Below, one piece after another: positions 8,997 to 10,934 of a stretch of 16,715 bases of DNA. The translations under genes and the position numbers were made by a program. The number at the start of each line of letters is the position of its first letter. The first letter of the stretch is position 1. The stretch is from a virus. The notes under the pieces were generated by a model. The model made no database searches and was not told the DNA's origin. It worked only from the letters and a program-made list of their open reading frames with translations. The DNA is taken from the UHGV virus genome UHGV-1907752; one strand, given 5' to 3'.

Positions 8997-10934
8997 TCAG
9001 CCGCCGGACGCACTGCCGTAGTTCACTCCGGTGATCACCGCCACCGCCGCGGTACGGCGACGACGCCAGTTGATCCAGCGCTCCGCACGGATGGCCACGC
9101 TGCCTGTCTGGAACATGGAAACCAGCTCCACCGGGGACGGCGTGGTACTGTCGCCGGTCGGCTCAGACTGCATTTCCAGTGATGCCTCGCGGGACATATC
9201 CACTGCCACGCCGCCGTCATCCGCCAGATAAATATCCGGGGCATTCACCAGCACCAGCTGGTCACCCACGTACTGGGAGACAATCACCGGCAGCCCCTGG
9301 AAGGAGCCACCCAGCAGGGTCATGTCCGGGTATTCCTTCTGACCCAGCGCATTTTTACGCATGGACAGTGCCAGGGCATTGGTGCTGGACATCAGCCAGA
9401 CCGCACCGGTGGGCTGCAGGTTTGCTGCCACAAACTGTCCAAACGCAGCCTCTGCATCCGCATCCGGGTTACCGGTTGATGCCGTGCCCTTCACATCATG
9501 GGTGATGGACGCCGGGGAGACATCTGCCACTGCGGCTTTTTTCGGGTCCACAAAGTCTGTATCCAGACGCGCCACCACCGCTTCCGCCAGCGCATTACGG
9601 ACCAGTGCATCAGCAGCCGGACTGGAAAAACGGATCAATTCTTCCGTCAGTACCGCAATGGCCGACACCTTCGCATGACTGAAGGTGATGGATTCAAAAT
9701 CAAACTTCGTCAGGGGTCTGGCCTTACCCTCACCCACCCAGCCGGCAGCACCGCCGGACACCTGGGCGTGCACACGGATATTGAACGGCACCTGACGAAG
9801 TGCAGGGATCCCGCCCTGACCAAATCGCCCGATAATGGTCTGCGGACGCAGGTAATCAATAAAGTCCTGTGCGTATTCCTGATATTCAGACAGGCTGCCT
9901 GCCCACTGCGGATCCGTGGTGGTCCCCGCGCCCACTGCCGATTTCAGGACATGATGCAGACGACTGTCATCCGGATACTGACGACGGGCCACTTCCAGGG
10001 CTTCAGATCGGACGCCTTTAGCCGCAGCCAGCGATTTGGCAAAGCGGGCGAAGCCAATCCCCTTATCCAGTTTCTGCTCCACACGGATCACCGGCGCAGA
10101 AGCCACCGCGGCCACATTCCCGTTACCGGCCTGTTTCACCGGCTGCGCCGTGGCGGCCTTACCGGCTTCCAGTTCACGCAGGCGCTTCAGGTGCGCATCC
10201 ACCTGACGGATTTCCGCTGCGGTGTTGTCGTAATGCTCTTCCTCCTCCACATCCAGCGTGCGCCCTTCCTCTGCGGCTTTGGTCATGACCTCCTCAAGGG
10301 AGGCTGCCAGCGCTGCACGCTTGTTTTCAAAACTTTTAATCTGTTCGCCAATATTCATTATGGTCTTTTCCTTATGAAAAACGGTTGTTGACTGTGCCGC
10401 AGCGCCGGCAGAAGATGCGATTTTCACCACCGGTTTCCGGTTGCCGGACGCGGCAGAAAACGGGCGGTCGTAAGATTTAATGGTCCGGATGGTGCATTCC
10501 GCATTCGCGGGCACGGTGACGGCAGACACCTCCATCAGTTCCCAGCGCAGAAAATGCAGTCCGCCTCCGTCCAGAAAGGTGTATTCATGGGGACGGAAGC
10601 CCACGGACAGCCCCCTGACCAGCCCGGTCTTAATGGCCGCCCAGACCTCATCCAGCCGGGCAGCCAGTTGCGACGGCATATCCGGTACGGGCTTCACCAG
10701 TGTTGCCGTGATTTCCAGCCCTTCGCTGACCCGGCGCACCGTACACTGCCCCACCGGGCGGGAATGGTCATGCTGCCAGAGAAACGGGATCGCACTGCCA
10801 AACTCCGCGCCCTCCGGCTCCAGGATGTCACCATCCCGATCCGGAGAAGGCGTTGACGCAATCCCGGTGATCACCCGTTCATCCTCACTGAAGGATTTCA
10901 CCGTCAGCAGGGAACAGGCCCGTTTAAGAGTCAC
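8997..10934 (-). CDS. prohead protease - scaffold-like linker - major capsid protein (HK97-fold) fusion
   Basis: 645 aa. The N-terminal 150 aa carry HK97-type prohead protease (S78) motifs (…GIASTPSPDRDGDILEPEGAEF…FLWQHDHSRPVG…GLSVGF…VSAVTVPANAECTI). The middle is a charged, helical EEEE-containing segment. The C-terminal 300 aa are HK97-MCP-like (…VAIRAERW…). GTG start at 10932-10934 with AGGAGG 5 nt upstream. Confidence 0.75.
   Translation of the reverse strand: MTLKRACSLLTVKSFSEDERVITGIASTPSPDRDGDILEPEGAEFGSAIPFLWQHDHSRPVGQCTVRRVSEGLEITATLVKPVPDMPSQLAARLDEVWAAIKTGLVRGLSVGFRPHEYTFLDGGGLHFLRWELMEVSAVTVPANAECTIRTIKSYDRPFSAASGNRKPVVKIASSAGAAAQSTTVFHKEKTIMNIGEQIKSFENKRAALAASLEEVMTKAAEEGRTLDVEEEEHYDNTAAEIRQVDAHLKRLRELEAGKAATAQPVKQAGNGNVAAVASAPVIRVEQKLDKGIGFARFAKSLAAAKGVRSEALEVARRQYPDDSRLHHVLKSAVGAGTTTDPQWAGSLSEYQEYAQDFIDYLRPQTIIGRFGQGGIPALRQVPFNIRVHAQVSGGAAGWVGEGKARPLTKFDFESITFSHAKVSAIAVLTEELIRFSSPAADALVRNALAEAVVARLDTDFVDPKKAAVADVSPASITHDVKGTASTGNPDADAEAAFGQFVAANLQPTGAVWLMSSTNALALSMRKNALGQKEYPDMTLLGGSFQGLPVIVSQYVGDQLVLVNAPDIYLADDGGVAVDMSREASLEMQSEPTGDSTTPSPVELVSMFQTGSVAIRAERWINWRRRRTAAVAVITGVNYGSASGG

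Follow-up and report, generated by a model that had tools for sequence, protein, structure and literature searches.

A protease-scaffold-capsid gene of Stx-phage-type lambdoid prophages with a candidate internal start for a capsid-only product

One reading frame encodes a protease, a scaffold and a capsid protein

We analyzed a 16,715-nucleotide stretch of viral DNA (UHGV virus genome UHGV-1907752; hereafter, the window) and in particular its protease-capsid gene, a minus-strand open reading frame (ORF) at 10934..8997. The ORF is uninterrupted and comprises 645 codons, and its 69-kDa product consists of a prohead protease, a linker, a delta-domain-like scaffold and an HK97-fold capsid protein, as judged by an ORF scan and by Pfam and PHROG matches (645 aa; 8997..10934, minus strand). 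It begins with a GTG (10934..10932) and ends with a TGA (8999..8997); the plus-strand translation of 8997-10934 is closed by many stops. A perfect Shine-Dalgarno (SD) sequence, AGGAGG (10940..10945, minus strand), lies 5 nt 5′ of the GTG, which is itself embedded in an out-of-frame ATG-TGA "start-stop" (ATGTGA, 10931..10936, minus strand) located 3 nt after the SD. A promoter search found no promoter within or beside the ORF.

An earlier interpretation made from the letters of the window (hereafter, the sequence-only reading) had described a single 645-aa polypeptide at 8997-10934 that starts with GTG. The polypeptide stands as described, with the addition that it is encoded on the minus strand, which had been left unstated. 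The GTG is real and, together with its ATGTGA context, is identical in all 14 E. coli-lineage copies that we examined. In other genera, 22 of the 24 fused relatives examined start with ATG, and the remaining two, listed with TTG starts, represent upstream ORF extensions. A hidden frameshift or stop codon, which would have made this two genes, is excluded: complete E. coli genomes contain the unbroken ORF at 99.8% identity, and hundreds of divergent homologues have the same length, 640–670 aa.

Profile searches recognize both halves of the protein. Pfam assigns residues 48-152 to Peptidase_S78 (PF04586; E 2.4e-8, 34.7 bits, cut-off 21) and residues 386-635 to Phage_capsid (PF05065; E 2.4e-14, 53.8 bits, cut-off 24.2). 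Residues 1-639 align with positions 7-626 of the 626 positions of PHROG phrog_617, "major head protein" (E 1.4e-261), a profile that matches the protease and the capsid halves full length in one polypeptide. In the motifs WQH55DH and GLS110VGF, His55 (codon 10772..10770, minus strand) and Ser110 (codon 10607..10605, minus strand) align with the catalytic His65 and Ser114 of HK97 gp4 and are the predicted catalytic residues. Neither residue varies across 113 aligned homologues (36–78% identity), among which 9 positions are invariant and about 60 nearly so. The motif PANAECTI occupies residues 142-149.

An AlphaFold model computed from the 113-homologue alignment (mean predicted local distance difference test score [pLDDT] 86) resolves the protein into successive parts. 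The protease domain (residues 18-154; 10473..10883, minus strand) is compact and beta-rich, with the Peptidase_S78 match and a fold like that of herpesvirus assemblin. It is followed by a linker (residues 155-192; 10359..10472, minus strand), of which residues 155-189 are predicted to be disordered (pLDDT <50); linker length and sequence vary among homologues, and the frame is always kept. Two long helices (residues 195-223 and 229-262; 10149..10352, minus strand; pLDDT ~96) form the delta-domain-like scaffold, which has a weak coiled-coil match and is similar to the N-terminal part of the major head protein encoded by the cf-PICI EcCI2. A second disordered stretch (residues ~263-292) separates this hairpin from three short helices (residues 293-331; 9942..10058, minus strand), which follow an invariant Gly292 in the alignment and which, going by the model, may prolong the scaffold or form an N-terminal extension of the mature protein. 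The HK97-fold capsid body (residues 342-640; 9015..9911, minus strand) comprises an N-arm helix, an E-loop, a spine helix and an A domain. Searching solved structures by sequence gave weak capsid matches only (Bxb1, E 0.004), with no close relative among them.

The gene encodes, in one frame, an S78 (HK97-gp4-type) serine protease, a flexible linker, a delta-domain-like scaffold and an HK97-fold capsid protein. Much of this had been anticipated. The protease hallmarks named in the sequence-only reading (QHD, GLSVGF and PANAECTI) are all present, in an S78 domain of predicted assemblin fold with His and Ser intact; its middle helical segment is, in the model, a disordered linker and then a long helical hairpin; and its HK97-like C-terminal capsid is borne out by a Pfam match above threshold and by the HK97 fold of the model. 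The domain search that it had proposed supports both protease and capsid.

The fused gene is common and already annotated

We recognize the ORF as the head gene of a Sawaravirus/Marienburgvirus-type lambdoid prophage of E. coli, a type seen in Shiga toxin (Stx)-converting phages. Stx-converting lambdoid prophages of E. coli O157:H7 (Sawaravirus, Marienburgvirus) have the same gene, 96–99.8% identical and with the same length, GTG start and neighbors; examples are PP_55 of phage JLK-2012, gp59 of Stx2a_WGPS2 and RefSeq WP_000173036.1. The window differs from these copies only in the neighboring portal region, where it has a run of six G and an N gap.

Among 5426 complete E. coli genomes, 1255 contain the protease-capsid ORF, in up to seven copies per genome and at up to 99.8% identity, and the ORF is uninterrupted in 1252. 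Among deposited phage genomes, 95 share the 7.1-kb head module at ≥90% identity; most are Stx1a-, Stx2a- or Stx2c-converting phages. The gene also occurs in IMG/VR viral contigs. An exhaustive profile search returned 1187 cluster representatives at E ≤ 1e-30. We aligned the window protein with the 150 closest 50%-identity cluster representatives; 142 of these 151 sequences are fused (~630–680 aa) and six are capsid-only.

The gene has been given several names. It is "phage major capsid protein" in PGAP, "putative major head protein/prohead proteinase" in the record of phage JLK-2012 and "phage prohead protease" in other annotations; JGI uses both HK97 names. The fused gene is already known and annotated, and neither the fusion nor the gene order is peculiar to the window. 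The sequence-only reading had presented a head module both "fused and rearranged" as unusual, a view that does not survive the existing annotation, the occurrence of the gene in about one quarter of complete E. coli genomes and the fusion in 142 of 151 aligned sequences. The gene would be better annotated as protease, scaffold and capsid than as "major capsid protein" or "prohead protease" alone.

At one locus in a Parasphingorhabdus metagenome-assembled genome (L032, 6001-7427), a capsid-like match to query residues 309-636 comes first and a protease-like match to residues 3-156 second. This reversed order could reflect a different arrangement or two abutting elements.

Sequence signals for a putative internal start at Met193

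An in-frame ATG within the gene (Met193; 10356..10358, minus strand) is the proposed start of a nested, capsid-only product of 453 aa (48 kDa; 10358..8997). An SD-like sequence, TAAGGA (10369..10374, minus strand), lies 10 nt 5′ of it.

Relatives in which the capsid gene stands alone begin at this place. In Burkholderia phage vB_SBP39 (genes 3 and 4) and in Snodgrassella alvi prophages, which are ~40% identical to the window protein over its whole length, a stop codon parts the protease (212 aa) from the capsid protein (444 aa), and the capsid start aligns with Met193. The separate vB_SBP39 capsid gene starts "MTIAEKIK", aligned with "M193-NIGEQIK" of the window protein. The capsid-only cluster representatives, including P0253 and P0264, likewise begin at query residue 193 or 194. 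Among the 142 fused representatives, 120 have a Met within alignment columns 189-196, and the surrounding linker is poorly conserved.

For a closer view of the start site, we collected the DNA of 100 fused genes from genomes and IMG/VR contigs and grouped it into 40 clusters (<70% identity), whose sequences are 41–69% identical to the window protein. An in-frame start codon lies 3-5 codons before the conserved AEQI motif in 39 of the 40 clusters (ATG in 33, GTG in 5 and TTG in 1). The energy of the anti-SD duplex 5′ of this codon is among the best 5% of the codon positions of its ORF in 25 of 39 clusters and among the best 1% in 17 of 39, whereas ten control columns, other conserved Met columns among them, reach the best 5% in 0-5 of 40. 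Many clusters have GGAGG 7–9 nt from the internal ATG. The residues encoded over the internal SD differ (KE, KG, EG, EA, EK or ED), and the AGGA/GGAGG purine core is kept.

Base composition and folding also set this site apart. The 60 nt centered on ATG 10358 have a G+C content of 30% versus 60% for the gene, which places them in the lowest 0.6% of positions, and the predicted folding energy around the ATG is −5.8 kcal/mol, against an average of −18.3 kcal/mol; only 1.3% of positions fold as weakly. The same AT-rich island is present in every Enterobacterales homologue examined, with G+C in the bottom 0.8% of positions or lower and folding energies in the weakest 2%. For the E. coli copy, this compositional dip is a stronger signal than the SD. 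The putative start codon, SD and AT-rich, apparently unstructured island at Met193 are features typical of bacterial sites of translation initiation. In the searchable literature we found neither a description of nested or internal starts in protease-capsid fusions nor experimental work on this capsid protein; the sequence evidence for the internal start is the new point on an otherwise known gene.

A nested gene is the probable arrangement

How might these signals be used? The gene is probably nested, with a minor protease-capsid product that would deliver the protease and a major capsid-only product that would build the shell. Under this proposal, initiation at GTG 10934 would yield the 69-kDa protease-scaffold-capsid protein and initiation at ATG 10358 (Met193) a 48-kDa scaffold-capsid protein with a layout identical to that of HK97 gp5, the two products being 3′-coterminal. 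Through shared capsid and delta domains, the two would assemble together on the portal, such that a few fused subunits would bring the protease covalently into the procapsid. The enclosed protease (His55/Ser110) would then free itself and degrade the linkers and scaffolds of its own and of other subunits (in cis and in trans), leaving a mature capsid protein of ~33–38 kDa with its N terminus between residues ~292 and 350. Candidates for this N terminus are the invariant Gly292, which follows Lys291, and the disordered segment 332-341. We infer the two products, their ratio, their co-assembly and the cleavage sites.

Since the frame between the two halves is kept despite many linker indels, the long form also appears to be under selection. 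It is tempting to speculate that a GTG within ATGTGA would fit a deliberately weak long form, with the start-stop damping its translation. The sequence-only reading had envisioned maturation by a cis-acting protease/scaffold. The conserved internal ribosome binding site (RBS) and start at Met193 weaken this idea and suggest processing in trans, with most capsid subunits being made without a protease. For the family as a whole, we lean toward the view that its protease-capsid "fusions" are nested gene pairs, in which an internal RBS at the start of the delta domain would give the capsid protein as main product and the full-length protein would be a minor protease carrier.

Several considerations weigh against nesting. 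The case for initiation at Met193 is drawn from sequence only. The internal SD of the E. coli copy is moderate (TAAGGA, −6.2 kcal/mol), as ~12–15% of gene positions score equally. Because the clusters share descent, their counts are not independent events, and a binomial test overstates the significance. The purine core could owe something to amino acid-level selection on an E-G/K-G motif (as a protease site, for instance), and lineage L028 lacks a start codon at the internal site. The cleavage site is bracketed rather than located, since the hhalign alignment to HK97 gp5, which would put the cut near residue 350, is weak (probability 11.7%). Finally, a rough volume estimate, made by reasoning only, is compatible with a prohead that bears protease on all subunits.

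In the strongest alternative, the 645-aa polypeptide is the only product, every subunit carries protease and scaffold, maturation occurs essentially in cis, and Met193 with its SD is a relic of an ancestral two-gene state. The continuous ORF, the strong AGGAGG at its 5′ start, the maintenance of the fused frame across the family and the modest strength of the internal SD in E. coli all agree with a single product, and published annotations treat such genes as encoding one fusion protein. However, a relic would be expected to decay in a linker that varies freely, whereas 39 of 40 clusters retain the start codon, most have a strong SD that is specific to this site when compared with the ten control positions, and the AT-rich, unstructured island persists as well. 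Moreover, the weak GTG of the E. coli lineage, overlapped by ATG-TGA, fits a minor rather than a sole product. We consider a single product possible but less likely than nesting.

It is far less probable that the gene is a decaying, non-functional remnant of a defective prophage and that its fusion is accidental and without a role. In some genomes the adjacent portal region carries a "frameshifted" annotation, and many O157 lambdoid prophages have been reported to be defective. Yet the catalytic His and Ser and the 9 invariant and ~60 nearly invariant positions are conserved over 113 sequences, the length is conserved, and the gene is present in deposited Stx-converting phages and IMG/VR contigs. 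An artificial joining of separate protease and capsid genes by a sequencing or assembly error in this draft window, which might be suspected from the artifacts 2 kb away (10 N and an exact 55-nt duplication) and from the relatives that carry two genes, is refuted by the uninterrupted ORF in 1252 complete genomes (up to 99.8% identity) and by the fusion at 14 independent E. coli-lineage loci and in 142 of 151 aligned sequences.

Comparison with known protease-capsid and nested systems

In HK97, the gp4 protease and gp5 capsid protein are encoded by two genes after the portal gene, whereas in the window a single frame precedes the portal gene. Identity to the HK97 proteins is 28% for the protease and ~18% for the capsid protein. 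According to work of Duda et al. in 2013, the HK97 protease is reportedly targeted by its own C-terminal tail, whereas fused subunits of the proposed kind would bring theirs in covalently. Protease-scaffold-capsid fusions have been noted in the literature for actinobacteriophage clusters and Rhodobacter phages; their hosts are different, and the likeness to the window gene considered here is one of layout.

Among lytic coliphages, the closest protease matches are in T5-like phages such as Bf23 (~29–30% identity over residues 22-168), and the T5 capsid is among the structural matches, although the T5 pb11 protease and pb8 capsid protein are products of separate genes. The delta domain of T5 pb8 is 159 aa long, comparable to residues 193-~340 here, and the T5 capsid has T=13 symmetry.

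Nested protease/scaffold genes are known from lambda (C/Nu3), HSV-1 (UL26/UL26.5) and HFTV1 (gp17/gp17.5), in which an internal in-frame start gives an abundant 3′-coterminal assembly protein, as shown experimentally (bioRxiv 10.64898/2026.09.13.751334). The window gene shares with these pairs a long ORF with an N-terminal assemblin-type protease and internal in-frame start signals, here deduced from sequence. The pairs differ in the nested product, which is a separate scaffolding protein in lambda, HSV-1 and HFTV1 and would here be a capsid protein with its own scaffold domain. Phage Mu I/Z is a further nested protease/scaffold pair.

If our proposal is correct, the nested protease-scaffold strategy of herpesviruses and lambda extends to phages without a separate scaffolding protein. 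It would also explain how protease and capsid protein can be fused without placing roughly 400 copies of the protease in each head, and would give the fused genes in the window protein's family a simple rule that can be put to the test.

Gene order and intergenic hairpins

The whole window is a late operon on the minus strand. The order around the gene is TerS, TerL, protease-capsid, a 73-aa ORF and portal, with genes for lysozyme, Rz and an HNH endonuclease preceding TerS. Following the portal gene are those for Ad1, Hc1, a gp10-like protein, tail terminator, tail tube, tail chaperones and tape measure. The upstream neighbor is the terminase large subunit gene (10998..12659, minus strand; Pfam, PHROG). 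Downstream, a conserved 73-aa ORF (phrog_829 in PHROG; 8731..8952, minus strand) separates the capsid gene from the portal gene. The portal protein, identified with Pfam (PF04860, E 2.7e-81), is encoded by the next large ORF; the portal proper (7421..8785, minus strand) is ~454 aa in relatives and is here read through into the next gene. With the portal gene downstream and TerL and TerS upstream, the placement of the fusion before the portal in the sequence-only reading was correct.

This order is old. TerS-TerL-(protease-capsid)-small ORF-portal-Ad1 is kept in at least 25 loci from Enterobacterales, Hydrocarboniphaga, Marinobacter, Hyphomicrobiales, Caulobacteraceae, Snodgrassella and one Burkholderia phage, and thus spans gamma-, alpha- and beta-proteobacterial relatives. 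"Capsid before portal" is the normal order for the head module of these prophages. The order TerL-protease-capsid-portal is also found in the unfused relatives, Burkholderia phage vB_SBP39 and the Snodgrassella prophages (TerS-TerL-protease-capsid-small ORF-portal-connector); in this old module, then, being fused and being rearranged are traits independent of each other.

Hairpins flank the protease-capsid gene on both sides. Between TerL and the capsid gene, just 5′ of the SD, is a terminator-like hairpin (GAACCGC-TCCG-GCGGTTT) with a T run (10956..10973, minus strand); comparable places around the HK97 head genes carry annotated putative terminators. Directly after the capsid stop codon is a 9-bp GC-rich hairpin (8961..8982, minus strand; −22.1 kcal/mol, z −3.0). 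From the capsid stop to the 73-aa ORF, the minus strand reads TAAGGAGG (8990-8983), the hairpin (8982-8961), 8 nt and the ATG at 8952. Most of 15 enterobacterial relatives checked have the same layout of SD, hairpin, ~8 nt and ATG with differing stem sequences, and in Burkholderia phage vB_SBP39 the hairpin lies 5′ of the SD instead. The hairpin may bring a split SD near the start codon, or it may stabilize the mRNA. A split SD joined by a hairpin has been reported for T4 gene 38.

The portal region and other features of the window

The portal region contains both a draft artifact and a homopolymer whose length differs from that in some other copies. Ten N at 7055-7064 are flanked by an exact 55-nt duplication (7000-7054 = 7065-7119) that lies within 162-nt (54-aa) tandem repeats, a pattern suggesting that a scaffolder joined the ends of two k=55 contigs. 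The apparent break between 595-aa and 242-aa "portal" ORFs results from this artifact, and we rejected a programmed frameshift as its cause; a 65-nt period reported by a tandem repeat finder is likewise spurious, a product of the same gap. Separately, the window has six G at 7440..7435 (minus strand; a C run on the plus strand), compared with five in O157:H7 86-24 and phage JLK-2012. With the sixth G, the portal frame continues into that of the next gene. Six G are also present in phage vB_EcoS-705R7 (99.4% identical), where portal and ORF2 form one protein of 807 aa, a Pantoea relative has a 1243-aa portal-ORF2 fusion (L019), and PGAP labels the two-ORF version of the portal "frameshifted". 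The homopolymer length at 7435-7440 may reflect a genuine polymorphism, slippage at this site or an error in sequencing.

Next to the portal on its downstream side lies a gene (6297-7423, minus strand; intact copy at 9511-10734 of L002) that is usually annotated as a second "portal protein". In most relatives it is a separate ORF of ~300–400 aa that overlaps the stop codon of the portal gene (~450 aa) by ATGA. Its product contains 54-aa tandem repeats in variable number and has a weak, sub-threshold CBM_5_12-like match at its C terminus; it matched no functional family. The gene occupies the place of the HK97 protease and capsid genes and could encode a head decoration or fiber protein.

Three features lie farther from the head genes. 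An A AAA AAG slippery heptamer (3658-3667, minus strand) directly precedes the TAG of the Phage_TAC_1 tail assembly chaperone and is followed by a Phage_tail_T ORF; from its sequence, this is the standard −1 frameshift arrangement of the lambda G/GT type. The tail tube protein (4047-4763, minus strand) has a C-terminal Ig-like domain (Ig_3, I-set). At the junction of the lysis and packaging genes, a 113-aa ORF (14248-14589, minus strand) encodes a TonB C-terminal domain.

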